From Candidatus Multivoradales bacterium (GTDB lineage Bacteria; Acidobacteriota; Thermoanaerobaculia; Multivoradales; Multivoraceae): a DNA stretch of 64,000 nt. Each line of letters opens with the position of its first letter. Position 1 is the first letter of the stretch. The DNA lies in contig CBDCWI010000002.1 in the NCBI GenBank assembly GCA_965223325.1, positions 3,680,001-3,744,000 of the forward strand, in the 5' to 3' direction. Below, in pieces: positions 47,392 to 64,000 of the stretch. The notes beneath the pieces are model-generated. The model had not been told where the DNA came from. It ran no database searches and saw only the letters and a list, made by a program, of their open reading frames with translations. The position numbers and the translations under genes were made by a program.

Positions 47392-49488
47392 ATGACTCGT
47401 TCTGCTACTGAACCCCGCTCGACGACCCCGGCCAAACGCTCTTCACCCGCCCTGCGCCTTGGCCTCATGTTGCTCTCACGGGCGCTCGACGAGCGCTTCG
47501 AGTCGCTGCGCCTCTCGGGTCGAGTCGCCAAGTGGTACAGCGCAATCGGTAACGAGGGCATCACCGTTCCGGCCGGTCTGGCACTCGATCAACGCGATGT
47601 CCTGGTGACGTTGCATCGCGACCTCGGGGCGATTCTGGGCGTCTATCTCGATCCAGCGCGCACCTTTCCGGGCCTGGGCCTGCCGGCTGAAGCACAGAAG
47701 CCAGAACCCGAGGCGATTCTCGAGCGCCTGGCCCGTCAGCTGCTCGGCCGCGCCGGCGGCTTCTCGGAGGGGATCGAGCGCTCGTATCACTACGGCTACT
47801 TCGACGAAGCTGCTGGTATTCAACACATCGGCATGATCAGCCACCTCGGCTCGATGATTCCGGTCACCGCCGGTGCGGCCTTCGCGCGCCAGCGCGAAGG
47901 GAACGGCGGCATCGCGATCAACTTCATCGGCGAAGGTGGAACCTCGACGGGCGACTTTCACGAGGCGCTCAATATCGCCTCGGTGTGGAAGCTACCGATG
48001 GTTCTTGTGGTTGAGAACAACCAGTTTGCCTTCTCTACGCCGGCGGCGGCGCAGTTCTCCTGTGAACGCCTTTCGGATCGTGCGCTCGGCTATGGCATGG
48101 CCGGAGAGACCATCGACGGCAACGACCCCGAGCGCATGCAGACCGCGGTCGAGGCGGCAGTGCGCCGCGCCCGCGAGGGGCGCGGGCCGACTTTGCTCGA
48201 GGCGGTCGTCGGTCGCATGCGAGGTCACGCCGAGGGGGACGACTCGCTGAAGGTGGTTCCCGAGGAAGATCTCGAGCGCTACCGCGCCGCCGACCCGGTG
48301 CCGGCCTACAGGACGCGCCTGATCTCAGGCGGCGTGCTTGACGAGGCCATCGTGAGGGCGCTCGAGGAGCGCGCCCATGAGCTCACCGAGCTGGCCCTCG
48401 ACCGTGCCCTCGAGGCGCCGCTACCCGACGCCTCGGTGGCCAGACGCCCGGTCCGTGCAGCGGCTTCCCCGGACAGGATCGCGATTCCCACCCCCACGAG
48501 CCGCGCGCCCGCGGATGATTCGACGTCGTACGTTGACGCGATTTCCCGCGCCCTCTCTGAAGCGATGGAGAGCGACCCTTCGGTGGTCCTCATGGGCCAG
48601 GACATCGGAGCTTTCGAAGGTGCGTTCCGTGTGACTCGCGGGCTCCACCAGCGCTGGCCCGAGCGTGTGCGTGACACCCCGATCGCCGAAAGCGGCACTC
48701 TCGGTCTCGCTGCCGGTGCGGCACTCCTCGGGCTGAAACCAATCGTCGAGATGCAGTTCGCCGACTTCGTCTCCTGCGGCTTCAACCAGATCGTCAATGT
48801 CATGGCCAAGCTCTACTACCGCTTCGAACGCCCCTGTCCGGTGGTCATACGCCTGCCTTCGGGGGGTGGCGTTGGCGCCGGCGCTTTCCATTCGCAAAAC
48901 CCTGAGGGTTGGTTCGCGCACACCGCAGGGCTCGAGGTGGTGTGCCCTGCCACCGCAGTCGACGCCTGGTCGCTGATGCACGCGGCGATACAGAGCCCCA
49001 ACCCGGTGATCTTCTGCGAGCACAAGTATCTCTATCGCCGGATCAAAGAGGTCCTGCCGATGGAGTGGGAGCCCGAGGTCCTCGGTCGCGCTGCGGTGCG
49101 TCGGCCGGGCTCTGACCTGACGCTGGTCGGCTATGGCGCGTCGGTCTGGACGTGCATCGACGTTGCGGAGGCACTCTCGGAAGCCGGCGTGGCGGAAGCA
49201 GAAGTCGTTGACCTGCGTACGCTCGTTCCGCTCGACGAGGAGACGCTTCTCGAGTCAGTCAAGAAAACCGGCCGCGCGATCGTCGTTCACGAAGCGCAGC
49301 GCACAGGTGGCTTCGGTGCCGAGATTGCAGCGCGCATTGCCGATTCAGCCTTCGCCTGGCTCGACGCGCCGGTCAAGCGCGTGGCCTATGCCGATCGCCC
49401 GGTTCCGTACCTGAAAGTGCTCGAGAAAGAGCTTCTACCTGACGTCGACCGAGTCACCGCCGTTGCCCGCGAGGTCCTGGCCTTCTAG
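47392..49488 (+). CDS. 2-oxoacid dehydrogenase E1 alpha/beta fusion
   Basis: TPP motif GEGGTSTGDFHEALN..ENN, DTPIAES, EMQFADF, HSQ, EHK.LY. Confidence 0.92.
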   Translation: MTRSATEPRSTTPAKRSSPALRLGLMLLSRALDERFESLRLSGRVAKWYSAIGNEGITVPAGLALDQRDVLVTLHRDLGAILGVYLDPARTFPGLGLPAEAQKPEPEAILERLARQLLGRAGGFSEGIERSYHYGYFDEAAGIQHIGMISHLGSMIPVTAGAAFARQREGNGGIAINFIGEGGTSTGDFHEALNIASVWKLPMVLVVENNQFAFSTPAAAQFSCERLSDRALGYGMAGETIDGNDPERMQTAVEAAVRRAREGRGPTLLEAVVGRMRGHAEGDDSLKVVPEEDLERYRAADPVPAYRTRLISGGVLDEAIVRALEERAHELTELALDRALEAPLPDASVARRPVRAAASPDRIAIPTPTSRAPADDSTSYVDAISRALSEAMESDPSVVLMGQDIGAFEGAFRVTRGLHQRWPERVRDTPIAESGTLGLAAGAALLGLKPIVEMQFADFVSCGFNQIVNVMAKLYYRFERPCPVVIRLPSGGGVGAGAFHSQNPEGWFAHTAGLEVVCPATAVDAWSLMHAAIQSPNPVIFCEHKYLYRRIKEVLPMEWEPEVLGRAAVRRPGSDLTLVGYGASVWTCIDVAEALSEAGVAEAEVVDLRTLVPLDEETLLESVKKTGRAIVVHEAQRTGGFGAEIAARIADSAFAWLDAPVKRVAYADRPVPYLKVLEKELLPDVDRVTAVAREVLAF

Positions 49489-49495
49489 GCGCCTT

Positions 49496-49660
49496 TCAGT
49501 CCTTCTTGGCCTCGAGCGCTGCCAGCCGGCGCTCGATCTCAGCCAGCTTGTAGAGGATCAGAACGTGAGTCTTCTTGGCGTCGATGCCCACCGGGCTTTG
49601 GTCGCTGTGGATGAGCGCTTCGATCTCTTTCTGCGCGTCTTTTGGGATCTCGAGGGCCAT
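49496..49660 (-). CDS. Small protein (54 aa) not in the ORF track, divergent from narK
   Basis: MALEIPKDAQKEIEALIHSDQSPVGIDAKKTHVLILYKLAEIERRLAALEAKKD. GGAGG RBS and GC3-biased codons. Confidence 0.7.
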   Translation of the reverse strand: MALEIPKDAQKEIEALIHSDQSPVGIDAKKTHVLILYKLAEIERRLAALEAKKD

Positions 49661-49921
49661 TGCGGTTTCGCCTCCAGGTTGTTTCGGTTGTTCGAATCGT
49701 TCTCCTTGAGCTGACTCCGGAGTGTGTCAAGAAACGCTCGCCCGGCGGGCCAGGAGCAGGCTTGGAAACAGGCTACGTAGTTACCCTTACGTGGACTGGT
49801 AGTTGCCCGACGTCACAGGTCTCGGCCACCTTTCTATGGTGAACCAGTCGTGGTTTTTGTGTCATCAATTCGGGGTCAAAGAACAAGGTTTCGGTAGCCG
49901 CCATCTAGAGGGAGGGAACTG

Positions 49922-51481
49922 TTGGCTGGTGTCAACCTGTCCCAGTGGGACATCGAGAACGAAGAGTTCTGGAGGGTAACCGGTCGCAGGATCGGGATGC
50001 GCAACCTCTGGATCTCGATTCCCTGTCTCCTGTGCGGCTTTGCGGTGTGGCTCTACTGGAGCATCATCACCACCGAGATGCTCAACCTGGGATTTCCCTT
50101 CACCCAGGCCCAGCTCTTTACCCTTGCCGGAATCGCTGGCGTCACCGGCGCCACTCTGCGCATTCCGAGCTCGTTTCTGATCCGCATCGCGGGCGGTCGC
50201 AACACGCTTTTCCTGACCACGTCGCTGCTGCTCCTTCCGGCGCTCGGAACGGGCCTCGCACTCCGTGATCCGGAGACGCCGCTGTGGGTCTTCTGGATGT
50301 TGGCGGCGCTCTCTGGCATCGGAGGCGGCAACTTCGCCTCTTCGATGTCGAACATCAGCTTCTTCTTTCCGAAGCGCATGCAGGGTCTCTCCCTGGGGCT
50401 CAACGCCGGCCTCGGCAATCTCGGGGTCAGCGTCATGCAGGTGCTCCTGCCCTACGTGATGACCTTCGGGTTGTTCGGTGCCGCCGCCGGAGAGCCACGA
50501 ACCAATCCCGCAACGGGTGCGCTGAGCTTCATTCAAAACGCCGGGTTCGTCTGGGTGCCGGTGCTCTTGTTGCTTGGCGTGCTGGCGTTTTTCGGTCTCA
50601 ACAACATCACCACAGAGTGGGTGTCGCCGGGTCTGGGCTCGACCCTGTCGAGTTTCGGCAAGGTGCTCTCGCTACTCCTCATCGGTCTCGTTGCCGCGTC
50701 GGCAGGGCTCTACCTCCTGCTAGTGCTCGGGGTCAGCAAGTGGATCGTGTTGCCGATGGTGATCGCTGCGACCGTCTTCGGGATGAAGCTCGTCCCAGGA
50801 GAAACCCGCGACGCACTCGACCGCCAGTACAAGATCTTTGGCAACAAACACACTTGGGTCATGACGGTCATCTACATCATGACCTTTGGCTCCTTCATCG
50901 GCTTCTCGGCGGCGTTTCCGCTCGCCATCAAGGTGATCTTCGGTTTTGCCCACAGCCCCACCGGCGCTGAGCTCGGTGTCAATCCGAATGCTCCGAACCC
51001 CTTCATGTACGCCTGGCTGGGTCCTCTGGTGGGCTCGTTGGCGCGCCCTGTCGGCGGCTGGGTGTCAGACATGAAGATTGGCGGCGCCAAGGTGACCCAG
51101 ATCATCACCTTGGTGATGATCTCTGCGGCCCTCGGGGTCTCGTACTTCATGGTGCAGGCCTACCGCTCCGAGACCCCTGAGGTCTTCTTTCTTCCCTTCC
51201 TGCTGCTCTTTCTCGCGCTGTTCACGGCGACCGGAGTCGGCAATGGCTCGACTTTTCGTTCGATGGGTGTGATGTTCGACAAAGAGCAGGCCGGCCCAGT
51301 CCTCGGGTGGACCTCGGCGGTTGCCGCCTACGGTGCCTACCTCATTCCGCAGATCCTCGGCGAGCAGATCCAGGCCGGAACACCCGAGCGTGCCCTGATG
51401 GGCTTTGCGGCTTTCTATACAGCTTGTCTGGTTCTAAACTGGTGGTACTACGCTAGGCGTAACGCCGAGATCAAGTGCTGA
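49922..51481 (+). CDS. narK: Nitrate/nitrite MFS transporter
   Basis: WDIENEEFW, GGGNFASSMSNISFFFPK, GLGNLGVS, TFGSFIGF, GNGSTF. Confidence 0.95.
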   Translation: MAGVNLSQWDIENEEFWRVTGRRIGMRNLWISIPCLLCGFAVWLYWSIITTEMLNLGFPFTQAQLFTLAGIAGVTGATLRIPSSFLIRIAGGRNTLFLTTSLLLLPALGTGLALRDPETPLWVFWMLAALSGIGGGNFASSMSNISFFFPKRMQGLSLGLNAGLGNLGVSVMQVLLPYVMTFGLFGAAAGEPRTNPATGALSFIQNAGFVWVPVLLLLGVLAFFGLNNITTEWVSPGLGSTLSSFGKVLSLLLIGLVAASAGLYLLLVLGVSKWIVLPMVIAATVFGMKLVPGETRDALDRQYKIFGNKHTWVMTVIYIMTFGSFIGFSAAFPLAIKVIFGFAHSPTGAELGVNPNAPNPFMYAWLGPLVGSLARPVGGWVSDMKIGGAKVTQIITLVMISAALGVSYFMVQAYRSETPEVFFLPFLLLFLALFTATGVGNGSTFRSMGVMFDKEQAGPVLGWTSAVAAYGAYLIPQILGEQIQAGTPERALMGFAAFYTACLVLNWWYYARRNAEIKC

Positions 51482-51534
51482 GCATGCCTGACGCTTTCAA
51501 CAACTCTCCAGCGCGACGCGCTTGAGGTGACTCG

Positions 51535-52374
51535 ATGAAGATGAAACGAAGTGCATGGCCGGCGCTCTTGCCGGCCGTCGTCATGTTGGTCGTGCCGCAG
51601 ATGGCGATCGGGCAGGAAACAAGTGACTACTTCCGCGCCAACTGCATGAGCTGTCACACCATCGGCGGCGGGCGCCTGGTCGGGCCTGACCTCAAAAACG
51701 TCGCCGAGCGCGCTGACCACGAGTGGCTGGTCAACTTCATCCTCAATCCGACCACGGTTCTCAACTCTGGCGACGCCTACGCCAAGAAGCTTCAGGATGA
51801 AGCGGGAGGTGCGGTGATGCCGGCGGTCATGGGAATGTCTCGCGATCAGGCAGAGCGACTGCTCGAGCTGATCGCCAGCGAGTCGCAACTCGACCAGTCT
51901 GCGTTCGCCGGTCTTTCGATTGGTGACGAGCCGTTCACCCAGGCCGACATCGATCGCGGAAAACGAATCTTCGAAGGGCGTCAACACCTGAGCAACGGGG
52001 GCCCGCCGTGCCTGTCGTGTCATACCGCCAGTGCTCTGGGTGGCTTCGGGGGCGGGCGCCTTGGTCCGGACCTGACCAGGGTGTACGAGCGCCTCGCCGG
52101 CCGCAAGAGCCTCGCCGCCTGGTTGCAAGCGCCGGCGACTGAAGTCATGCGGCCGGTCTACCGCGACCACACATTGACCAACGACGAGATCGTCGGCCTG
52201 GTTGCCTACCTCGAAGATCGCGCGCAAGCTGGCGGTGAAGCCTCGCAGACTTTCCAGGCGCTGTTGTTGGTACTCGGTCTCGTCGGTGTGGCGTTGACCT
52301 TCTTTTTGGCGGACACCCTCTGGAAGGGACGCTTTCGTGGAGTTAGAACCCCACTCGTGAAAGGTGAGCGATGA
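51535..52374 (+). CDS. Membrane-anchored diheme cytochrome c (NarC-like)
   Basis: Signal peptide, CMSCH and CLSCH each followed by GPDL, C-terminal TM. Stop overlaps the narG start. Confidence 0.85.
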
Positions 52375-55300
52375 CCAAGATCAAGAGCAACAACCCGTGG
52401 ATCCAGGACGAGGTCGATCCACAGTCGCGCAGCTGGGAAGAGTTCTACCGCAACCGCTGGCAGCACGACAAGATCGTGCGCTCGACACACGGCGTCAACT
52501 GCACCGGTGGCTGCACCTGGCAGATCCACGTCAAGAACGGCATCGTCACATGGGAGATGCAGGGCCTCGACTACCCGTCGCTCCAGGCTGATCTGCCGCC
52601 CTACGAGCCGCGCGGTTGTCAGCGCGGGATCTCGTTCTCCTGGTACCTCTACAGCCCGCTGCGGGTGAAGTACCCCTACGCTCGCGGCGCCCTGCTCGAC
52701 CTCTGGCACGAGGCACGCAAGAAGCACGACGACCCGGTCGACGCCTGGAAGTCGTTGATGGACGACCCCACCAAACGCAGTCGCTTCCAGCGCGCCCGTG
52801 GCAAGGGCGGCTTCCGCCGCACCGACTGGGACACGGCGCTCGAGTTGATGGCGGCGGCCAACGTGCACACCATCAAAGAACACGGTCCCGACCGGGTCAA
52901 CGGCTTCTCGCCGATTCCCGCCATGTCGATGATCAGCTACGGCGGCGGTTCGCGCTTCCTACAGCTCGCCGGTGGTGTGTCGCTCTCCTTCTACGACTGG
53001 TACTGCGATTTGCCCAATGCGTCGCCCGAGACTTGGGGCGAACAAACCGACGTGCAGGAGTCGGCCGACTGGTTCAACGCCAAGCTTCTCGCCGTCATGG
53101 GCTCGAACCTCAACATGACCCGCACCCCCGACTGCCACTTCGCCGCCGAGGCGCGCCACAACGGTTCGAAGATGTGGGTCTTTGCGCCCGACTTCAACCA
53201 GGTCGCCAAGTATGCCGACGAGTGGGTGTCGATCAACGCGGGCCAGGACGGCGCCTGGTGGATGGCGGTCAACCATGTGCTTCTCAAGGAGTTCCACCAC
53301 GAGCGCCAGACCCCTTACTTTCTGAACTACGCCAAGCAGTACACCGACTGCACTCATCTGGTCGAGCTCCTGCCCGAGAACGGTCACTACAAGGCCGGGC
53401 AGATGCTGCGCGCCAACCGCCTGGCGACCTACCAGGACACCGAGAACGGTGACTGGAAGTTCCTCATGTGGGACAAGGGCGGCAAGCCCATGATGCCGAT
53501 GGGGAGCGCCGGCTTCCGGTGGGCAGACAAAAAGGGCCCGAACGGTGAGGGGCAGTGGAACCTCAAGCTCGAAGACGGTCAGACCGGGGAGAAGATCGAT
53601 CCCATCCTGAGTTTCCTCGAGGTCCAGAACGAAGGCTCGGTCGACCAACTGCAGGTCCGGCTGGACGACTTTGGCCAGGGCCGCACGATGACCAGGGGTG
53701 TGCCGGTGCAATACGTCGACACCATCGACGGTCCGGTTCCCTGTACCACGGTCTATGACTTGATGATGGCGCAGTACGGCGTCAACCGCGGTCTCGAGGG
53801 CGAGTACCCCGAAGACTACGATGCCGACAGCGCGTACACCCCGGCCTGGGCCGAGAAGTACACCGGCATGAGTCGCAAGATGGTGCTGCGATTCGCCCGC
53901 GAGTGGGGCGAGACCGCCGAGCGCACCGGTGGCGCCTGCACGATCATCATCGGTGCCGGCATCAACCACTGGTACCACGCCAACCTGATGTATCGCGCCG
54001 GCATTCACGCTCTCATGCTGTGCGGTTGCATCGGCGTCAACGGTGGTGGCCTGGCGCACTATGTCGGCCAGGAGAAGCTGGCACCCGGCGAGTCCTGGGG
54101 AGCACTGGCGATGGGTAAAGACTGGGCCCCGGCTTCGCGGCTCCAGAACGCACCCAGTTGGCACTACGTGCACACCGACCAGTGGCGCTACGAGAAGTCG
54201 TTCACCGACTACCACACGGTGCCCGAGGGGTCGCAGATGGCCCAAGGCCACACCATGGACATGCAGGTCAAGGCGGTGCGCAACGGCTGGTTGCCGTTCT
54301 ACCCGCAGTTCAACCGCAACAGTATCGACCTGGCGCGCGAAGCCCAGGAAGATGGTTGTGAGACCGATGAAGAGATCAGCGCCTGGTTGGTCGACAAGCT
54401 CAAAAACGACGAGGTTCAGTTCTCGATCGAGGATCCAGACGCTCCCGAGAACTGGCCGCGGGTCTGGTACATCTGGCGTGGCAATGCGCTGATGGCGAGT
54501 GCCAAGGGGCATGAGTACTTCCTCAAGCACTACCTCGGTACGCACACCAACACGATCTCCGAAGACATGGCTGAGGACTCGGTCGAAGACGTGCGCTGGC
54601 GCGACGCCCCGATCGGCAAGATGGACCTGGTGGTCGACATCAACTTCCGCATGGACACCTCGGCGCTCTACTCCGACATCGTCCTGCCGGCCGCCACCTG
54701 GTACGAGAAGGCCGACCTCAACTCGACCGACATGCACAGCTTCATTCACCCGCTGTCCAAGGCGGTGCCGCCGTGCTGGGAGTCGAAGAGCGACTGGCAG
54801 GCCTTCCGTGCTCTCGCCAAGAAGCAGGCCGAGCTCTCCGAGCGTCACTTCCCCGAACCCGTCAAGGACATCGTCGCGGTGCCGCTCGCCCACGACTCGA
54901 AGGCCGAGATTGCCCAGCGTCACATCCGCGATTGGAAAACGGGTGAGGTCGAGGCCATTCCGGGCAAGACCATGCCGGCCTTCAAGATCATGACCCGCGA
55001 CTACAAGAACCTCTACCGCCAGTTCTGCGCCTTCGGCCCCGGGCCGCGCAAGAACGGCCTCGGCGCTCACGGCACCCACTACGCAATTGAAGATTTCTAC
55101 GACGAGTTGGCAGCCAAGCAGCCGTCGAGAGAATGGCCGGGAGAGGCGTACCCGTCGGTCAAGGAAGACGAAGAAGCCTGCAACCTGATTCTCACCCTTG
55201 CTTCAGTAACCAATGGCGAACTGGCCTACCGCTCCTACAAGAACATGGAGAAGAGGACCGGCCTGCCCTTGGTACATCTCGCCGAGAAGAACCGCGGTTC

Positions 55301-56039
55301 GCGAGCGACCTACAAGGATCTCCAGAGCCAGGTGAAGCGCCTCCTCAACAGCCCGATGTGGTCGGGCCTGACCGAGAACGGTCGCGCCTACTCGCCATTC
55401 ACCTACAACGTCGAGACCCTGGTGCCTTGGCGCACGCTCACCGGCCGGCAGCACTTCTACCTCGATCACGAGATGTACATCGAATTCGGGGAGCACGTGC
55501 CGACCTACAAGCCGAAGCCCCTGCCCCACGAGTACGCCGACCTTGTGTATACCGAGGAACGCGGTGAGATCCCACACGAAGAGTCGATGATGCTCAACTA
55601 CCTCACCCCGCACGGGAAGTGGCACATTCACTCGACCTACGGCGACAACCAGCGCATGACGACCCTGTCGCGCGGCTGTGAGCCGCTGTGGATGAACCCG
55701 AAAGACGCAGCGCAAGTCGGAGTTGTCGACAACGACTGGGTCGAGGTCTTCAACGATCACGGCGTCGTTGCGACCCGCGCGGCCGTCTCGGCACGGATCC
55801 CGCCCGGCATCTGCATCCAATATCACTCGCCGGAGCGCACCTACTCGGTTCCCAAGTCTCCGCTACGTAAGAACAGGCGAGCCGGTGGCCACAACAGCCT
55901 CACCCGGACTCGCCTGAAGCCCAACCTGATGGCTGGTGGCTACGGCCAGTTCACGTTCCACTTCAACTACTGGGGCCCCACCGGCTGCAACCGTGACACG
56001 CACATCATGGTTCGCAAGATGCCCACCCTGAACTGGTAA
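52371..56039 (+). CDS. narG: Respiratory nitrate reductase alpha subunit
   Basis: [49 protein letters not shown]. No Tat leader. Confidence 0.96.
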
Positions 56040-56073
56040 CCGAAGCACTGAAAGAAAAGGACGGAGACATTTC

Positions 56074-57567
56074 ATGAACGTACGCTCTCAAGTCTCGATG
56101 GTGTTTCACCTCGACAAGTGCATCGGTTGCCATACCTGCTCGATCGCCTGCAAGAACGTCTGGACGGACCGCCGTGGCACTGAGTACATGTGGTGGAACA
56201 ACGTCGAGACCAAGCCCGGTACTGGCTACCCCACCAAGTGGGAAGACCAGGAGAAGTACCAGGGCGGCTGGGAGGTCAAAGGTGACAAGGCGCAGCTCAA
56301 GTCGACCGGGCCCGCTCGGGTGGTGGCAAACATCTTCCACAACCCGCACCAGCCGTCGATGGACGACTACTACGAGCCATGGACGTACGACTACCAGAAC
56401 CTGTTCAACGCTCCCGAAGGTGACGATCAACCGGTGGCGCAGCCGATCTCGATGGTCACTGGCGAGCCGATGGACGTCGAAGCCGGGCCCAACTGGGATG
56501 ACGACCTCGGGGGTTCCGAGATCTACGCTGCCAACGACCCCAACCTCGACGGCCTGAGCCAACAGCAGCGCGACGAGTTGCAGGCCGTCGAGCGGCTGGT
56601 GTTCTTCTACTTCCCACGCATTTGCAACCACTGTCTGAACCCATCGTGCATTGCCTCGTGCCCGTCGGGTGCGCTTTATAAGCGCGGCGAAGACGGCATC
56701 GTTCTCATCGATCAGAAACGTTGTCGCGGTTGGCGCTCATGTGTCGCGGCCTGCCCCTACAAGAAGACCTTCTACAACTGGCAAACCGGCAAGTCCGAGA
56801 AGTGCATCTTGTGCTATCCGCGTCTCGAGACTGGCCAGGCGCCAGCCTGTTTCCACTCCTGCGTCGGCCGCATTCGCTATCTCGGCGTTCTGCTCTACGA
56901 CGCAGATCAGATCGAGGCTGCCGCCGCCCTTCCCGACGAAGAACTGGTCGAAGCGCAGCGCAACATGATCCTCGATCCGTTCGATCCCGAGGTCATCAAA
57001 GCGGCTCGCCGCGACGGTGTCCCCGACGACGTCATCGAGTCGGCCCAGAAGTCGCCGGTCTACCAGTTCGTCAAGGTGTGGAAGATCGCGCTTCCGCCAC
57101 ACGTCGAATACCGCACGTTCCCGATGCTCTTCTACGTGCCGCCGATGTCGCCGGTTCAGGCCAGCAAAGACGGCGACGTGGTGTTCCACATCAGCGGCAA
57201 CCTGTTTCACGACATCGACGAGGCGCGTGTGCCAATCGAGTACCTGGCGAATCTGTTCGGTGCGGGTGACGAAGGCGGTGTGCGCTACGCACTGCGTAAG
57301 CAGAAGGCGGTACGCATGTATCGACGGGCGCTCACGGTTGGCGATGTCGACGACGAGTGGGCAGCCCGCGCCCTGCGCGAGGCCGACTGCTCGCCCGAAG
57401 AGGCCGAGGCGATCTACAGGTTGACGGCGCTGTGCACCTTCGACGAGCGTTTCGTCATCCCGCCGATGCACCGTGAGGAAGCGCTGGCGATGATGGAAGA
57501 CGATCCGCACGAAACCAAGGCCTCGACCGGGTTCGGCTTCGTCCAGGCGCCACGAAGGGGTCTCTAG
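56074..57567 (+). CDS. narH: Nitrate reductase beta subunit
   Basis: LDKCIGCHTC, WNNVETKPG, CNHCLNPSC, CRGWRSC, KCILCYPR. Confidence 0.97.
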   Translation: MNVRSQVSMVFHLDKCIGCHTCSIACKNVWTDRRGTEYMWWNNVETKPGTGYPTKWEDQEKYQGGWEVKGDKAQLKSTGPARVVANIFHNPHQPSMDDYYEPWTYDYQNLFNAPEGDDQPVAQPISMVTGEPMDVEAGPNWDDDLGGSEIYAANDPNLDGLSQQQRDELQAVERLVFFYFPRICNHCLNPSCIASCPSGALYKRGEDGIVLIDQKRCRGWRSCVAACPYKKTFYNWQTGKSEKCILCYPRLETGQAPACFHSCVGRIRYLGVLLYDADQIEAAAALPDEELVEAQRNMILDPFDPEVIKAARRDGVPDDVIESAQKSPVYQFVKVWKIALPPHVEYRTFPMLFYVPPMSPVQASKDGDVVFHISGNLFHDIDEARVPIEYLANLFGAGDEGGVRYALRKQKAVRMYRRALTVGDVDDEWAARALREADCSPEEAEAIYRLTALCTFDERFVIPPMHREEALAMMEDDPHETKASTGFGFVQAPRRGL

Positions 57568-58368
57568 ATGGGCACCGAGACACCAGCCAAGAGCACGGTG
57601 GACTGGAGTCCGCTAGCCCAGCTGGCGCCGCTTCTGGTGTACCCCACCCGGGAGCTGCCGAGCCAGTTACCTCTGTTGCGCGCGCTCTTCGAAGCGAGCG
57701 GTGAGCCGATGGCTCCTGAGCTCGAAGTGGCGCTGTCGCGACTCGCGGAGCTCACATTTCACGAGCTCGAAGAGCTGTACACCCAGATCTTCGACCTCAA
57801 TCCGGTGTGTACCCTCGAAGTCGGTTGGCACCTCTATGGAGAGCAGTACGAGCGCGGCCGCTTCCTGGTGCGCACCCGTGACCTCCTGATGAGTGTTGGC
57901 CAGGGCGAGGCCGGCGAGCTGCCGGACTTCTTGCCAACGCTGCTTCTGGCGCTGCCGCGCCTCGAGGCAGAGCGCGCCGTTGGGCTTGCGGCTTACCTGG
58001 TACCCGCACTACGAAAGATGTGTGATGCCTTCGGTGACGAAAAGCAGGCTGGCGAAGCCGCACAGCTCTATTTGCCGATCCTTCGCGCAGTGCGCGCTGG
58101 CCTCGAAGCGCGAGTACCGAAGGCTCTCGTCTCTGAAGTCGAAACGCGTTTCAGACCAGCAATGGTCGCGGGTCGAATGCGCGGTCTCGACCCTGGGCCG
58201 AACGGTGACTTCCCACTCGACATCGTTGGGGACACGGGCTTCTCCGGAAGAGCGGCGGCCGGACAGGACGGCATCGTGAAACTTGGGGTGGACAAGCCGC
58301 GCGGTCCGAAGGGCGCGGTGTCTGGCATTCCGATCAGCGAGATCCCGATGGAAGGAAAACCATCATGA
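57568..58368 (+). CDS. narJ: Nitrate reductase assembly chaperone
   Basis: LL.YP, ELYTQIFD, GE.YERG, ELPDFLP. Lies between narH and narI. Confidence 0.88.
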   Translation: MGTETPAKSTVDWSPLAQLAPLLVYPTRELPSQLPLLRALFEASGEPMAPELEVALSRLAELTFHELEELYTQIFDLNPVCTLEVGWHLYGEQYERGRFLVRTRDLLMSVGQGEAGELPDFLPTLLLALPRLEAERAVGLAAYLVPALRKMCDAFGDEKQAGEAAQLYLPILRAVRAGLEARVPKALVSEVETRFRPAMVAGRMRGLDPGPNGDFPLDIVGDTGFSGRAAAGQDGIVKLGVDKPRGPKGAVSGIPISEIPMEGKPS

Positions 58369-59075
58369 CCAACTGGGCTGCACAGCTCGACCTCTTTTTG
58401 TTCTCGGCCTTGCCATACATGGCGCTGGTGATCTTCTTCGTCGGCACCATCTACCGCTACCGGATGCAGGCCTTTACCTACTCGAGTCTGTCTTCGCAGT
58501 TCCTCGAGAACCGTCATCACTTCTGGGCGCTGGTGCCTTTCCACTACGGCATCCTGGTGGTGCTCGCCGGTCACATCCTGGCGTTTTTCCTCCCCAAGCA
58601 GATCCTGCTCTGGAACAGCGTGCCGGTGAGGCTATGGGCGCTCGAGATCACGGGACTGGTTTTTGGGCTCATGACCCTGGTGGGGCTCTTGGCGATCCTT
58701 GTGCGCCGCTGGACGACGTCGAAAGTCAAGATCGTGACCAGCACCGCCGACTGGGTTCTCTACCTGCTGCTCCTGGTCCAGGTGGCGACCGGTTTGTGGG
58801 TGGCGCTCGCCCACCCCTGGGGCTCGTCGTGGTTCGCCACGTCGATGACGCCCTATCTGTGGTCGATCGCCAAATTCTCACCCGCCGCCGAGTACATCGT
58901 GGGCATGCCATTCATCGTCAAGCTGCACGTCGTCAACGCGTTCGTTCTGATTCTGTTCTTCCCGTTCACTCGTCTGGTGCACGTCCTGGTGACGCCAAAC
59001 CACTACCTGTGGCGCAAGCGCCAGGTCGTCCGTTGGTATGCCAACCCCGCCGACCGGGCCGCGGCGCGGCGCTGA
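58365..59075 (+). CDS. narI: Nitrate reductase gamma subunit (cytochrome b)
   Basis: SSQFLE, FHYGIL..GH, KLH, FPFTRLVH. Confidence 0.94.
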   Translation: MTNWAAQLDLFLFSALPYMALVIFFVGTIYRYRMQAFTYSSLSSQFLENRHHFWALVPFHYGILVVLAGHILAFFLPKQILLWNSVPVRLWALEITGLVFGLMTLVGLLAILVRRWTTSKVKIVTSTADWVLYLLLLVQVATGLWVALAHPWGSSWFATSMTPYLWSIAKFSPAAEYIVGMPFIVKLHVVNAFVLILFFPFTRLVHVLVTPNHYLWRKRQVVRWYANPADRAAARR

Positions 59076-59098
59076 TGGTTGCTTAGGGGTAGACGCTC

Positions 59099-59764
59099 AT
59101 GAAGGGTCGAATCTTCACCTTGCTGTTGCTGGTGGGTGTGCTGTACGCGTTGCTCATTCTGGTGCCCAAGCTCGACGCTGTCCGCCTGCCCGACAACCAC
59201 CGAGGCTTCCAACCAGAGCAGCCCATCGCCTACTCCCATCGCCTCCACGCCGGTGAGCTCCAGATCGACTGCGAGTACTGCCACTCGGGGGCGCGCCGCA
59301 GTCGCCACGCCGGGATCCCAGCCGTCGAGGTGTGCATGAACTGCCACTCCTACGTCACCGCCACTCGCGCTCAAGTACGGGCGGCCGAAGCCGAGGCCGA
59401 ACAGAACGGCCAGCCGGCTCCAACCAGGGTCATGTCGCCCGAGATCTCCAAGCTCTACCGAGCGCTCGATCTTTCAGACGACGGCGATCCGTTGGGCGGT
59501 GAACCTTCGCCGGTCGAGTGGGTGCGGATTCACCAACTCCCCGACTTTGCCGCCTTCGACCATCGTCCCCACGTCGCTGCCGAGGTGCCGTGTCAGAGCT
59601 GTCACGGCGCGGTTGAATCGATGGAGCGGGTGCGCCAGGTCGAGTCGCTATCGATGGGCTTTTGCGTCAACTGCCATCGCCTGCCGGCGGCGGACGGTCG
59701 CACTCTCGCCGACGGTCAACCGCATCCGCAGGCGTCGACCGACTGCGCGACCTGTCACTACTGA
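59099..59764 (+). CDS. actA: Pentaheme cytochrome c, alternative complex III ActA-like
   Basis: N-terminal TM, PEQPIAYSHRLH, five CxxCH motifs, SMGFC. Confidence 0.88.
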   Translation: MKGRIFTLLLLVGVLYALLILVPKLDAVRLPDNHRGFQPEQPIAYSHRLHAGELQIDCEYCHSGARRSRHAGIPAVEVCMNCHSYVTATRAQVRAAEAEAEQNGQPAPTRVMSPEISKLYRALDLSDDGDPLGGEPSPVEWVRIHQLPDFAAFDHRPHVAAEVPCQSCHGAVESMERVRQVESLSMGFCVNCHRLPAADGRTLADGQPHPQASTDCATCHY

Positions 59765-59773
59765 GTTTCGATC

Positions 59774-62700
59774 ATGAAAGAAGTAGAACGACTCCCCATC
59801 CTCCAGCCCAACCCAACGGGGGAAACGACGCTCGAAGAAGTCCTCGAGCGGGAAGGTGTCCTGGGCATAGGCCGGCGCGGTTTTCTGCAATCGGCCGGCT
59901 TTGGCCTGGCCGCCACGGCACTCGCGGGCTGTTCACGTGCTCCGATCGAGAAGGCGATTCCCTACGCCACTCAGCCCGAAGGTCTGGTGCCGGGGCGCGC
60001 GGACTGGTACGCCTCGACGTGTGCTGGCTGCTCGGCCGGGTGTGGCGTTCTGGTCAAGACGCGCGAAGGTCGACCGATCAAGCTCGAAGGCAATCCTGAC
60101 CATCCGGTTTCGAAGGGTGGTCTGTGTGCGGTGGGCCAGGCCAGCCTGGTCGGGCTCTACGACTCGCTGCGCTTTCGGAGCCCGATGGTCGACGGATCAT
60201 CCTCGACCTGGCAAGAAGTCGACACCCGGGTCACGGCGGCGCTCGCCAATACGTCGGGAGGTCGAGTGCGGCTCTTGACCGGAACCCTGAACGGTCCCAC
60301 CGATCGCGCCTGGATCGAGCGCTTCGTCGCACGTTTTGCCAACGCCCGCCACGTAACCTACGACGCGCTCTCGTCGTCGGCGATTCAGAGCGCCCACCTG
60401 AAGAGTCACGGTGTGCGTGCGCTGCCGCGCTACTTCTTCGATCGCGCCGAGACGATCGTCAGCTTCGGTGCCGACTTCTTGGGCAGCTGGGTTTCGCCGG
60501 TTGGTGATACCGCTCGCTACGTCAAGGGGCGCAGTCTCGCGACCAGCCCACCGCGAATGAGCCATCACACCCAGTTCGAAGGCAGGCTTTCGCTCACCGG
60601 GGCGAACGCCGACGAGCGGGTCAAGGTCTCGCCGAGTCAGGCCAGTGCTGCGTTGGCGTGGCTGGCGGCGGATCTGGGTGCCCGGGCCGGTGCGTCGGGA
60701 CACACCAGGGCTCCGCTTCCGGCAGCGCTCGAAGCCGAGGTCAAAGACGTTGCCGATCGGCTCTGGCAGTCGCGAGGTCGAGGTCTGGTGGTGTCGGATT
60801 CACAGGGCGAAACCGACCAGCTCCTGTGCAACCAGATCAACCATGCCCTCGACAACTACGGCCACACGCTCGACCTCGATCGGCCCTCGTATCAACGACT
60901 GGGCAACGACGCAGCGCTCGAGGAGTTGCTCGCTGAGCTCGAGCGGGGCGACGTCGAGGTTTTGATTACCGCGGGCGTCAACCCGGTCTACGACCTGCCA
61001 GACGCCTCGGGCCTTGCTGCTGCTCTCGATCGGGTCCCGCTGGTGGTGGCCATCGCGCAGCGTGACGACGAGACCACGGCGCACGCCGGGGTTGTATGCC
61101 CGGAGGCCCATGAGCTCGAGAGTTGGCGTGACGCCGAGCCGGTGGCCGGGGTCGTTTCGCTTACTCAGCCGGCGATTCGCAACGTGTTCGACTCGCGCAC
61201 CTTGAGCGAATGTCTCGCCGCCTGGACCGGGACACCGGGCACCGCCCTCGACCTCATGCGGAAGACCTGGGAAGAGCGGGTGTTCCCGCGCGCCAGGGCC
61301 CAAGGGAACTTCAGCGCCTTCTGGGACTTAGCGGTTCACGACGGTTACGTCGAGCTGCCGGCAGTGGCTACGGGTGCGGCCTGGGCTGCCCCAGCGATCA
61401 ATCCGGCTGCGTCCGGAGGGTCATCATCTGGGGAGACAGTATCCGGGGAGACAGCGGGTTTGGCGCTCGTTCTCTATCCCAAGGTCGGTCTGCTCGATGG
61501 GCGGCACGCTCACAACCCCTGGCTGCAGGAACTTCCCGATCCGATCACCAAGGCCAGCTGGGACAACTACGCGTGCATCGCTCCGGAGACCGCACGTGAG
61601 CTCGGGATCGAAACCGGCGACATGGTGCGGGTCGAGATCGATGCCGACGCGATCGAGCTGCCGGCCTTCGTCCAGGAGGCTCAGCATCCTGAGGTGGTCG
61701 CGGTGGCGGTCGGCTACGGCCGCACGGGAACCGATCGTTTCGAGAAGGTCGGGCCGCAATGGCTCGAGGCGCGCCCTAGCGTTTCAGCCGGCGACACCGT
61801 CGGCGTGCGCGCTAACGGCCTGGCGCACTGGCAGGATTCCCAGCGTTCGATGACGCAGAGTGGTGCGAAGCTCACCAAGCTAGCCGGCTCCGTGCGATTG
61901 GCGCTTTCGCAGACCACGGCGTCGCTTACTCCCGACGGCTTCCGTGAGCCACTCGACAAGTCGCCGCGCCCGATCGTTCAGGACACCGTACTCGGCGCAT
62001 ACATCAAAGATCCTCATGCCGGTACACCGGCCGTCCATCATTTCGACTCCGACCTGTGGCCCGAGCACGAGCCGGGTCGGCACCATTGGGGCCTGGCCGT
62101 CGACCTCAATGCCTGCACAGGTTGCAGTGCCTGCGTCGTCGCCTGCCAGTCCGAGAACAACGTGCCGGTCGTCGGCCGCGATGAAGTGCGACGGCGTCGT
62201 GACATGCAGTGGATGCGCCTCGATCGCTACTACAACGAAGAAGGCGATGCGACGTTTCAACCGATGATGTGTCAGCAGTGCGACAACGCGCCGTGCGAGA
62301 CGGTGTGCCCGGTGGTGGCCACGGTGCACAGCGACGAAGGCCTCAACCAGCAGGTCTACAACCGTTGTGTCGGCACGCGCTACTGTGCCAACAACTGCCC
62401 CTACAAGGTGCGGCGCTTCAACTGGTTCAACTACCGCCACGACGACCTGCTCGCCAACCTCGCCCTCAACCCGGAGGTCGTCGTGCGCACCCGCGGGGTG
62501 ATGGAAAAGTGCACCTTCTGCGTCCAGCGCATCGAAGACCGGCGGGCGAACGCCAAGGCAGAGGGCCATGAGCTCGAAGACGGCGAGATCAAGACCGCCT
62601 GCCAGCAATCGTGCCCGGCGGGTGCGATCGTATTCGGCGACATGGCAGACCCCAACAGTCAGGTGTCGCAGATGGCCCAAAGCGGGCGGCACTTCCGCAT

Positions 62701-62845
62701 TCTGGAAGAGATGAACATCAAGCCTTCGGTGGCCTATTTGAGGAAGGTGCGCAACCGGCCGGCTGGTGGCAGTCACCGTGATGACAGTGCCGGTGACCAT
62801 GCAACCGACCATGCGCCTACAGAGGAGGAAGCCGCTCATGGCTGA
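59774..62845 (+). CDS. actB: Alternative complex III ActB (molybdopterin-fold plus Fe-S domain)
   Basis: Tat motif GRRGFL, REGRPIKLEGNPDHP, NPWLQELPDPITK..WDNY, CTGCSAC, CQQCDNAPC, YNRCVGTRYC, RGVMEKCTFC. Confidence 0.9.
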   Translation: MKEVERLPILQPNPTGETTLEEVLEREGVLGIGRRGFLQSAGFGLAATALAGCSRAPIEKAIPYATQPEGLVPGRADWYASTCAGCSAGCGVLVKTREGRPIKLEGNPDHPVSKGGLCAVGQASLVGLYDSLRFRSPMVDGSSSTWQEVDTRVTAALANTSGGRVRLLTGTLNGPTDRAWIERFVARFANARHVTYDALSSSAIQSAHLKSHGVRALPRYFFDRAETIVSFGADFLGSWVSPVGDTARYVKGRSLATSPPRMSHHTQFEGRLSLTGANADERVKVSPSQASAALAWLAADLGARAGASGHTRAPLPAALEAEVKDVADRLWQSRGRGLVVSDSQGETDQLLCNQINHALDNYGHTLDLDRPSYQRLGNDAALEELLAELERGDVEVLITAGVNPVYDLPDASGLAAALDRVPLVVAIAQRDDETTAHAGVVCPEAHELESWRDAEPVAGVVSLTQPAIRNVFDSRTLSECLAAWTGTPGTALDLMRKTWEERVFPRARAQGNFSAFWDLAVHDGYVELPAVATGAAWAAPAINPAASGGSSSGETVSGETAGLALVLYPKVGLLDGRHAHNPWLQELPDPITKASWDNYACIAPETARELGIETGDMVRVEIDADAIELPAFVQEAQHPEVVAVAVGYGRTGTDRFEKVGPQWLEARPSVSAGDTVGVRANGLAHWQDSQRSMTQSGAKLTKLAGSVRLALSQTTASLTPDGFREPLDKSPRPIVQDTVLGAYIKDPHAGTPAVHHFDSDLWPEHEPGRHHWGLAVDLNACTGCSACVVACQSENNVPVVGRDEVRRRRDMQWMRLDRYYNEEGDATFQPMMCQQCDNAPCETVCPVVATVHSDEGLNQQVYNRCVGTRYCANNCPYKVRRFNWFNYRHDDLLANLALNPEVVVRTRGVMEKCTFCVQRIEDRRANAKAEGHELEDGEIKTACQQSCPAGAIVFGDMADPNSQVSQMAQSGRHFRILEEMNIKPSVAYLRKVRNRPAGGSHRDDSAGDHATDHAPTEEEAAHG

Positions 62846-64000
62846 GCCGTTCGTTCTGCGCCGTCCCTTGGTGACGGGCAACAAAGGGCCGGCCGAGGTT
62901 ACGGCCGACATCACCGACCCGCTCGAGCGTCAGCCGGGCGCGCTCTGGTGGGGCGCCTTTTTGACCGCGGTCGCCGCCTTACTGCTCGGCATCGCCGCGG
63001 TGACCTACCAGATCGGCACCGGGATCGGGGTCTGGGGCCTCAACAAGACGGTTGGTTGGGCTTTCGACATCACCAACTTCGTTTTCTGGGTCGGCATCGG
63101 TCATGCCGGAACCCTGATCTCGGCGGTGCTCTTTCTGTTGCGCCAGCGTTGGCGCACGGCGGTCAACCGGTCGGCCGAGGCGATGACTATCTTTGCGGTC
63201 ATCTGCGCGGGCATCTTCCCGATCATCCACATGGGGAGGCCGTGGTTGGCCTTCTGGATGCTGCCGTATCCCAACACGCGCGGGCCGTTGTGGGTGAACT
63301 TCCGGTCTCCGCTGCTCTGGGACGTGTTTGCGATCAGTGTCTATCTAACGATCTCGGCGGTGTTCTGGTACGTGGGCTTGATCCCGGATCTGGCGACGCT
63401 GCGCGATCGCTGGAAGGGTCGCAACACTCTGAGGCAGAAGCTCTACGGCATCTTCAGCCTCGGCTGGCGCGGTTCGGTGCGCGACTGGCAGCGTTACGAG
63501 AAGGTCTATCTCTTGCTCGCCGGGCTCGCGACGCCCCTCGTGCTCTCGGTGCACTCGATCGTTAGTTTCGACTTCGCCACCAGCGTGATTCCCGGCTGGC
63601 ATACGACGATCTTCCCGCCCTACTTTGTTGCCGGCGCGATCTTCTCGGGAATGGCTATGGTGCTGACCCTGATGATCATCGCGCGAGTGACAATGCGCCT
63701 CCAGGACTACGTCACCGTCGATCACATTGAAGTGATGTGCAAGCTGGTGCTGCTCACCTCTTGCATCGTCGGCCTAGCCTACGGTACCGAGTTCTTCATC
63801 GCCATGTACTCGGAGAACCGTTTCGAGCGTTTCGTATTTCTCAATCGCGCCAGCGGTCCGATGGCTTGGAGCTACTGGATCATGGTGAGCTGCAACGTTA
63901 TCGTGCCGCAGCTCCTATGGTTCAGAAGAGTACGGCGCTGGATCGCGGCGGTCTTCGTGATTTCGCTCCTGGTCAACGTGGGGATGTGGTTCGAGCGTTT
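62838..64000 (+). CDS. actC: Alternative complex III ActC (NrfD/PsrC family), 3' end outside window
   Basis: Translated by hand from ATG 62838: GIGVWGLN..GWAFDITNFVFWVGIGHAGTLISA..NRSAEAMT..NFRSPLLWD..LSVHSIVS..GWHTTIFPPYF. Confidence 0.92.
   Translation, partial: MAEPFVLRRPLVTGNKGPAEVTADITDPLERQPGALWWGAFLTAVAALLLGIAAVTYQIGTGIGVWGLNKTVGWAFDITNFVFWVGIGHAGTLISAVLFLLRQRWRTAVNRSAEAMTIFAVICAGIFPIIHMGRPWLAFWMLPYPNTRGPLWVNFRSPLLWDVFAISVYLTISAVFWYVGLIPDLATLRDRWKGRNTLRQKLYGIFSLGWRGSVRDWQRYEKVYLLLAGLATPLVLSVHSIVSFDFATSVIPGWHTTIFPPYFVAGAIFSGMAMVLTLMIIARVTMRLQDYVTVDHIEVMCKLVLLTSCIVGLAYGTEFFIAMYSENRFERFVFLNRASGPMAWSYWIMVSCNVIVPQLLWFRRVRRWIAAVFVISLLVNVGMWFER

Follow-up and report, generated by a model that had tools for sequence, protein, structure and literature searches.

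NarGHI is the textbook quinol-oxidising redox loop of nitrate respiration and needs no complex III. Alternative complex III (ACIII), encoded by act genes, is usually clustered with haem-copper oxidase genes, and accounts of ACIII gene neighbourhoods, in the parts of that literature open to search, report oxidase linkage or none. In a Candidatus Multivoradales bacterium the two systems meet in a single gene run. Within the window, which is the whole 64,000-nucleotide stretch of DNA analysed here (G000:C2:3680001-3744000, where G000 is the window's own genome and C1 and C2 are its contigs), nitrate reductase (nar) genes are followed directly by act genes. This nar-linked act set has no oxidase genes beside it, whereas the other act cluster of the genome does. 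Judged from sequence comparison, the run may well encode a composite respiratory unit in which a Thermus-type, cytoplasm-facing NarCGHI is coupled to a dedicated ACIII paralogue and wired to it through periplasmic haems, a reading that is held with moderate confidence.

NarCGHI of Thermus thermophilus shares with the window the order narC-narG-narH-narJ-narI and the presence of major facilitator superfamily (MFS) transporters. Its NarG is 61% identical to the window NarG over 1212 residues, with an N-terminal extension absent in both (the alignment runs from residue 4), and its NarC has the same overall architecture. Thermus NarC, as described in the available part of PMC7694296, interacts strongly with NarI in a two-hybrid assay, is required for Nar maturation, and is proposed to carry electrons across to Nir and Nor while complex III is repressed. 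The Thermus genes differ in what follows narI, which is an MFS gene and DUF2249 genes with no act genes.

The ACIII-cytochrome aa3 supercomplex of Flavobacterium johnsoniae (6BTM) supplies the best solved matches for ActA, ActB, ActC, and ActF, and domain 1 of the window NarC resembles the mobile N-terminal haem domain of its ActA. Forms with a NarC domain joined to ActA and cox genes after it share an ActC clade with the nar-linked forms. The terminal enzyme in F. johnsoniae is a haem-copper oxidase, whereas the one proposed here is a molybdoenzyme that faces the cytoplasm and would receive electrons through a dihaem cytochrome b. In the former the cytochrome c module is fused to ActA; in the window it is a separate dihaem protein.

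DsrMKJOP and Hmc-type complexes of sulfate reducers contain the same modules, namely a cytochrome b of the NarI family, a subunit of the NrfD family, a 4Fe-4S protein on the periplasmic side, a multihaem cytochrome c, and a catalytic subunit in the cytoplasm. NarI of the window also matches DsrM, HmcE, and TmcC, while ActB matches DsrO and QrcC, and ActC matches DsrP. The likeness is one of module content within an operon and not of whole-complex homology. DsrMKJOP uses the HdrD-like DsrK as its catalytic module where the window has NarGH, and ACIII, unlike DsrMKJOP, has two NrfD-like subunits plus ActD and ActE. In the DsrMKJOP structure, according to the accessible part of its report (10.64898/2026.08.25.746951), the NarI-family DsrM touches the trihaem DsrJ on the periplasmic face, the NrfD-like DsrP is the site of quinol oxidation, and the electrons finally reach the cytoplasmic catalytic subunit.

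In the literature searched, with subscription journals and supplements lying outside the search, nar-act synteny appears in PMC10732223 alone, and nothing pairing 'NarI-like' with 'ACIII' was found. The accessible text of that paper describes 13 instances of a six-gene 'novel NrfD-type complex' after Nar genes in metagenome-assembled genomes of Planctomycetota and KSB1. The six genes are a 5-haem cytochrome, a Mo/FeS protein, NrfD, ActD, 'ccoP', and 'quinone-binding subunit 2'. The cluster is not equated with ACIII there and is tentatively regarded as an NrfAH-like nitrite reductase or given a role in the respiratory chain; the same text is silent on fusions, on NarC, on the cluster's phylogeny, and on any survey in other phyla.

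The nar-act run and its predicted products

Nine genes of the run lie in the window, with lengths in amino acids (aa) or nucleotides (nt):

49922-51481, + strand: narK-type nitrate/nitrite MFS transporter, 519 aa from a TTG codon, start uncertain (open reading frame and family scan)
51535-52374, + strand: NarC-like dihaem cytochrome c, membrane-anchored, 279 aa
52371-56039, + strand: narG, catalytic subunit (TIGR01580 1467 bits, cut-off 1084)
56074-57567, + strand: narH, iron-sulfur subunit (TIGR01660 665 bits, cut-off 524; Nitr_red_bet_C)
57568-58368, + strand: narJ-like chaperone (TIGR00684 49 bits, under the cut-off of 59)
58365-59075, + strand: narI, dihaem cytochrome b membrane subunit (PF02665 206 bits; TIGR00351 132 bits, cut-off 106)
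59076-59098, no strand: narI-actA spacer of 23 nt, with a purine-rich stretch ahead of the actA ATG
59099-59764, + strand: actA, pentahaem cytochrome c with a membrane helix at the N-terminus and CxxCH at 58, 79, 165, 189, and 216
59774-62845, + strand: actB, molybdopterin-like and 4Fe-4S parts fused, with a twin-arginine motif and then a Cys (lipobox-like)
62766 (likely ATG 62838) to the cut at 64000, + strand: actC, NrfD-like membrane subunit, whose end is the equivalent of 64214

The gaps from narK to actC are, in order, 53, -4, 34, 0, -4, 23 (narI-actA), 9, and -8 nt. The layout claimed in the original prediction, with co-directional genes, overlaps or gaps of at most 53 bp, and 23 bp between narI and actA, was thereby reproduced from the open reading frames (ORFs). 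That prediction had also seen no evident terminator between the genes. A consensus scan, which covers sigma-70-type promoters and intrinsic terminators only, agrees: it returned one promoter-like and 15 terminator-like sites, every one intragenic, and the 23-nt narI-actA gap, like all other gaps, contains neither kind of site.

Past position 64000, the same strand continues (L004:211-8139) with actD, actE, actF, a NarK-family MFS gene, a 695-aa multihaem protein, and an FG-GAP/ASPIC protein. The run therefore holds two NarK-family MFS genes, its first gene and the one after actF. ActD matches PF11821 at 177 bits, ActE has one CxxCH, and the best PDB match of ActF is 6BTM_F. The downstream gaps range from -4 to +76 nt, and over all 15 genes the range is -8 to +76 nt. 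Within 20 kb downstream of the nar-act run there are no haem-copper oxidase genes, so the genes that the original prediction proposed to read next proved to be actDEF with no oxidase after them. The 15 co-directional, tightly spaced genes probably form one operon and would be co-transcribed.

NarG, NarH, and NarI all reach curated equivalog cut-offs. The NarG N-terminus has no RR motif and no twin-arginine signal, which indicates that NarG faces the cytoplasm. In an alignment with E. coli NarI (1Q16_C), residues His60, His70, His188, and His206 of the window NarI fall on the four conserved His, and an Arg stands at the position aligned with E. coli Lys86. The first transporter scores under curated cut-offs (NF011608 NarU 302 bits; TIGR00886 NarK family 266 bits) and has an orthologue 85% identical in locus L007. 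The place of the narJ-like gene between narH and narI is kept across the nar-act loci compared.

The best PDB matches of ActA, ActB, ActC, and ActF are subunits of solved ACIII (6BTM, 6F0K, 8K9E, 6LOD). ActA is closest to 6BTM_A, 8K9E_A, 6F0K_A, and 6LOD_A; ActB matches 6BTM_B at E 1.9e-188 and 6F0K_B at E 2.9e-176; and ActC matches 6BTM_C at E = 4.8e-160. Five CxxCH motifs are present in 40/40 ActA orthologues, and ActB carries an RRGF motif followed by LAGC, which fits export by the twin-arginine (Tat) pathway. The hallmarks of ACIII are present: actABCDEF order, pentahaem ActA, monohaem ActE, and a Tat motif on ActB. By these matches, the window genes are predicted to encode a nitrate reductase and an ACIII.

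The NarC-like gene lies directly upstream of narG, and its product has a signal peptide, CxxCH at 37 and 159, and a C-terminal hydrophobic helix. Two CxxCH motifs are found in 37/37 orthologues and the C-terminal hydrophobic segment in 36/37. In a search of a plasmid collection, the best NarC matches are 13 Thermus records, and the one inspected is the c-type cytochrome upstream of narG (narC). The protein has two domains of different affinity. Domain 2 (residues 138-240) is 42% identical to T. thermophilus NarC over 103 residues (E 3e-18) and is the only part to align with it in BLASTP, whereas domain 1 (residues 9-126) gives no such alignment and has as its best PDB match residues 33-151 of F. 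johnsoniae ActA (6BTM_A, E 1.4e-10). That N-terminal domain of ActA is proposed, in the portion of PMC8552683 available, to be a mobile sixth-haem shuttle from ACIII to cytochrome aa3.

A second actABCDEF set lies in G000 at C2:~1.2 Mb and is followed by a CuA-type protein and COX1. Since this oxidase-linked cluster exists, the nar-linked act set is an extra paralogue and not the housekeeping ACIII. A second act cluster had been among the things to look for in the original prediction.

Recurrence, ancestry, and fused relatives

Among 41 relatives of the same order, true NarI occurs in four genomes only (G000, G010, G032, and G036), and in 4/4 ActD lies 5.7-5.9 kb downstream of NarI on the same strand. 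G001, of the same genus as the window's organism, has neither NarI nor a nar-type ActD. A NarI search of genome contigs returned 15 loci, four of them on contigs too short to be informative (one from Planctomycetota, three from Bacteroidota). Act genes follow narI in all 11 informative loci, which belong to Acidobacteriota (5), Planctomycetota (4), and Gammaproteobacteria (2). In a sample of the phylum, 401 genomes evenly drawn, 39 NarI places were found in 36 genomes at E <= 1e-20. These comprise 31 act-linked places, two with NarI::Rieske, one with neither, and five on contigs too short, so that the act-linked share of informative loci is 31/34. Because it recurs in dozens of genomes, the arrangement is far beyond chance, and the survey of synteny proposed earlier ended in a conserved linkage. 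Taken with the lack of promoter-like sites ahead of actA in the consensus scan and of oxidase genes after actF, none of the three findings that the original prediction had named as contrary to it was made.

The narI-actA distance over 38 loci is -14 to +74 nt in 21, 274 nt in one, and 1.3-3.3 kb in 16. The identity of NarG or NarH to the window protein co-varies with that of ActC (Spearman 0.83-0.84, 31-36 loci), which, with the joint absence from G001, has the nar and act genes travelling as a unit; kin genomes are not independent, so this co-variation shows only that the nar and act sets diverge together.

Three of the 31 act-linked loci (L068:2562-16000; L071; L077) have a divergent NarG-like/NarH-like pair between the NarC gene and NarI-actABCDEF. 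The pair scores 493 bits with TIGR01580 against a cut-off of 1084 and 474 bits with TIGR01660 against 524. These loci lack NarJ and have an Rrf2-family regulator upstream. In G406 (L078), also one of the 31, the nar-act matches are fragmented with TGA stops inside, and the locus looks degenerate. In G345 (L045), the NarI match contains one TGA, and its frame is open for 1468 aa across actA and actB. The stops in G345 and G406 may reflect decay or sequencing errors.

The two act-less nar clusters with a NarI::Rieske protein (L074:7992-9320, + strand; L076:10688-12007, - strand) encode a NarI with a C-terminal Rieske [2Fe-2S] domain. It is followed in both by a bc-type cytochrome b (PF00033), a monohaem cytochrome c, and an MFS transporter. 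These clusters look like a Nar-bc hybrid, and Nar would thus be joined to a complex-III-like module in both known architectures.

The nar-linked ACIII belongs to a different clade from that linked to oxidases in the same order. In an ActC tree of 33 rows, 12 nar-linked rows and the fusion row of genome G027 form one clade (86/97), and 13 oxidase-linked rows of the same order form a separate one (98/98). The ActC rows of Planctomycetota and Gammaproteobacteria are placed among Acidobacteriota rows, which suggests transfer of the whole module. A quick 64-row ActC tree, rooted on three actCDF-type rows, sets a 53-row clade (99) apart from eight oxidase-linked Acidobacteriota rows (100). The 53 rows comprise 27 nar-linked, three divergent-NarG, 16 orphan, and seven in which ActA carries an in-frame NarC-like domain, with cox genes following in several. 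Of the 16 orphan rows, 15 form one group nested beside nar-linked rows; L117 arises separately.

In the G027 cluster a NarC-like gene precedes a single ORF that joins a NarI-like domain in frame to ActA; actBCDEF come next, and narGHJ is absent. A database search with this fusion found PF02665 joined to multihaem c domains in 55 among the 120 matches listed, from several sources. Such proteins are often annotated 'nitrate reductase gamma subunit'. Fused ORFs were checked in the assemblies of G027, L080, L081, and L117. In two further proteins, P0110 and P0117 (~555 aa), an ActA-type multihaem domain is combined with a permease domain that resembles TehA/SLAC1 (PF03595).

From a metagenome scan that used the fusion alignment, 80 of 525 confirmed loci were followed up. 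A NarI-like gene stands immediately before actA in 59/80, as a separate but abutting gene in 56 and fused in three. In 43 of these 59 the NarI-like gene has a NarC-like gene immediately upstream, with no space between them for narGHJ. As for the rest of the 59, narGH lies upstream in two (L105, L149), two more (L116, L120) are cut and look like true nar, and another 12 are cut upstream.

The NarI-like parts retain half of the haem ligands. Across 56 fusions (the 55 matches plus G027), a His is present at the G000 H70 position in 54 (the other two are gapped) and at H188 in 56; one is present at H60 in none and at H206 in one. All four His occur in 18/18 true nar-linked NarI. Among 55 metagenome loci without nar signs, the first His is kept in one, the fourth in one, and both in none. 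On alignment to E. coli NarI, the kept pair is H66/H187, which we take to be the ligands of the distal (periplasmic-side) haem, and the missing pair is H56/H205, presumably those of the proximal haem. A Glu is invariant both in true NarI (E94) and in the NarI-like domains of the fusions (E82). For the G027 fusion, the AlphaFold model has a predicted local distance difference test (pLDDT) score of 80-94 over the NarI-like bundle and the ActA membrane helix, and a Foldseek search with this model finds both 6BTM_A (E 1.2e-7) and E. coli NarI (1Q16_C; TMt 0.67-0.69, a TM-score scaled by the length of the target). These comparisons point to a large orphan family inside the nar-linked ACIII clade that has lost narGHJ and kept the NarC-like cytochrome together with a NarI-like protein bearing putative distal-haem ligands.

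Neighbouring genes and nitrogen-oxide enzymes in the carriers

The 695-aa protein, encoded with the FG-GAP/ASPIC protein at L004:4264-8139, has an N-terminal membrane domain of ~5 membrane helices, one CxxxxCH, and four CxxCH. It has weak Pfam matches only and no significant PDB relative, and among the loci searched it was found in G000 and G010 only. A distant relative is a 966-aa 5-haem cytochrome (L024:4688-7588, - strand; 25% identity over 242 aa, E 6e-7), a type that adjoins orphan clusters in 12/80 metagenome loci. A 1014-aa ORF upstream of the G027 cluster appeared to be a conserved neighbour and was rejected as spurious, being the antisense of the 966-aa 5-haem cytochrome gene.

Profile searches of G000 found no NirS, no NrfA, and no NirK over cut-off. 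A NosZ-like gene lies on the other contig (C1:521908-523566; 530 bits, under the cut-off of 625), and the genome has three COX1 genes and one bc-type cytochrome b. Among the 32 nar-act genomes of the phylum, NirK over cut-off occurs in one, a NosZ-like gene in four, and NrfA in 18. NirS was found in 0/32, a count without a positive control since the control genomes gave no match either. NirK (over cut-off), NirS, and NosZ are all absent from 27/32, with nitric oxide reductase not among the enzymes looked for, and ~10 of these 27 also lack NrfA.

Upstream of narK, the interval 49488-49922 has 0 matches to the FNR-type box TTGATNNNNATCAA at <=2 mismatches. In the whole window, the same box at <=2 mismatches has 26 matches against 8.35 expected, a number reached in 0/100 shuffles. 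A 698-aa ORF (47392-49488, + strand) combines 2-oxo acid dehydrogenase E1 alpha (PF00676) and E1 beta (transketolase-like) in one protein, and directly before it lies a 707-aa Ser/Thr kinase gene (45179-47302). A third, more distant ACIII-like/NrfD-type cluster is found in the G000 C1:1103692-1104165 region (L006), with ActD at 65 bits, an ActC-like protein 43% identical, and an apparently split ActB.

Electron path and rival explanations

In the proposed composite unit, the contact would be made at the distal haem of NarI, on the periplasmic side, where the pentahaem ActA and the membrane-anchored NarC would sit. Docking of the c haems of ACIII and NarC at this face would be the simplest account of the conservation, the separate clade, the fusions, and the NarC domains. 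Two routes can be drawn. In the first, which is favoured because of the analogy with DsrMKJOP, quinol would be oxidised at the NrfD-like ActC, and electrons would pass through the ActB iron-sulfur clusters to the ActA haems and NarC, and from there through the NarI b haems and NarH to NarG for cytoplasmic nitrate reduction. Any proton translocation by ACIII could add to the charge separation of Nar. In the second, quinol would be oxidised at NarI, and electrons would branch outward through NarC/ActA to periplasmic acceptors, in the manner proposed for Thermus NarC. We infer the physical association of Nar with ACIII and the direction of electron flow, as well as the stoichiometry and any extra proton translocation, from these gene-level patterns.

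The supercomplex wired through the dihaem cytochrome, as the original prediction had it, gains by comparison: the synteny, the separate clade, the fusions, the homology of NarC domain 1 to ActA, and the NarI::Rieske parallels are all consistent with it. In its strict form, a true supercomplex in which menaquinol is oxidised at ActC and electrons run via ActB, ActA, NarC, NarI, NarH, and NarG to nitrate, it is put forward only tentatively.

Several points weigh against the composite unit. Transient electron transfer between partners under common regulation would fit the conserved synteny and the fusions in relatives too. In 16/38 loci the narI-actA interval is filled by one or two genes for MFS transporters, so translational coupling of narI and actA is not general, and in the orphan loci the NarI-like gene and actA are mostly separate (56/59). 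Sampling is biased, the loci having been picked by likeness to this NarI or to ActA motifs, and many of the genomes are kin. The ActC trees contain no ACIII linked to oxidases from Planctomycetota or Gammaproteobacteria, pLDDT is < 60 in the haem-c part of the G027 fusion model, and the allocation of the two His pairs to distal and proximal haem is itself assumed. NarI has four haem ligands and an Arg at the Lys86 position, whose role in the E. coli protein we presume; it may therefore carry out quinol oxidation unaided, as does the E. coli protein, and the first route would then be unnecessary.

The strongest rival is co-regulation only. Here the act paralogue would be an anaerobiosis- or nitrate-induced quinol:cytochrome c oxidoreductase for periplasmic reductases, sharing a promoter with nar and making no contact with Nar; the enzymes served would be the NosZ-like enzyme and perhaps the 695-aa multihaem protein. 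[quoted passage not shown] The distant 5-haem relative beside 12/80 orphan clusters and the transporter genes that split narI from actA in 16/38 loci point the same way. However, the 695-aa protein is confined to G000 and G010 among the loci searched, and 27/32 carriers have no NirK (over cut-off), NirS, or NosZ, ~10 of them being without NrfA as well. Feeding of denitrification therefore does not explain the nar-act linkage, and the nitrate-induced ACIII with that purpose, an earlier reading of this locus, is weakened, G000 itself having no NirS and no NirK over cut-off. Co-regulation also leaves unexplained the NarI-like::ActA fusions, the retention of NarC and NarI-like proteins without narGHJ, and the NarI::Rieske-cytochrome b variants. 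It is considered rather unlikely.

Outward branching is a variant of the composite complex in which the direction alone differs. NarI would be the quinol dehydrogenase and Nar an extra quinol-oxidising module of ACIII, with electrons passing from the distal haem through NarC/ActA into the haem wire of ACIII and from there to cytochrome c acceptors. The orphan NarI-like parts, with distal-haem ligands beside ActA, fit a quinol site and one haem feeding ActA, and the Glu invariant in true NarI (E94) and in the fused domains (E82) is in keeping with this, as is the bridge to Nir and Nor proposed for Thermus NarC in the part of PMC7694296 available. Yet ACIII already possesses a quinol site of its own, in ActC, cytochrome c-dependent N-oxide reductases are found in few nar-act genomes, and in DsrMKJOP, by the accessible text of 10.64898/2026.08.25.746951, the NarI-like DsrM binds a structural quinone only. 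Outward flow is accordingly thought doubtful, more so than co-regulation.

The third reading of the original prediction, reversible nitrite oxidation by a Nitrobacter-type cytoplasmic nitrite oxidoreductase (NXR) with electrons passing from NarI through NarC to ACIII or an oxidase and ACIII reversed to reduce quinone, can draw on a narC-like cytochrome ahead of the nxr genes in Nitrobacter hamburgensis (PMC7694296, available part) and on the placement of cytoplasmic NXR among Nar in the NarG/NxrA tree (PMC10732223, available part), but it finds no support here and is highly improbable, since NarG and NarH exceed the NCBI NarG/NarH equivalog cut-offs, NrfA for nitrite ammonification in 18/32 nar-act genomes points to nitrate and nitrite reduction, and the cluster has no oxidase.

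The composite unit bears on how nitrate respiration is understood. If a dedicated ACIII is wired to most Nar enzymes of Acidobacteriota and to some in other phyla, the assumed electron path and energy yield of nitrate respiration in abundant bacteria of soil and sediment are incomplete, and ACIII gains a second physiological partner in addition to oxidases and photosynthetic reaction centres. The role of NarC, open since its discovery in Thermus, would become testable. The orphan clusters of NarC, a NarI-like protein (NarI'), and ACIII are common in metagenome contigs and point to an ACIII subtype with two extra Nar-derived subunits, a subtype not described in the literature searched, with the limits given above. 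The label 'nitrate reductase gamma subunit' on fused proteins could inflate counts of nitrate reducers.

Were the true supercomplex to exist, the prevailing way in which Acidobacteriota, and some Planctomycetota and Gammaproteobacteria, respire nitrate would conserve more energy per nitrate than the textbook NarGHI. The NarI::Rieske-cytochrome b clusters would be a convergent solution built on a bc-type complex, and both the orphan NarC-NarI'-ACIII and the Flavobacterium-type ACIII-oxidase supercomplex would descend from a nitrate-respiring ancestor.

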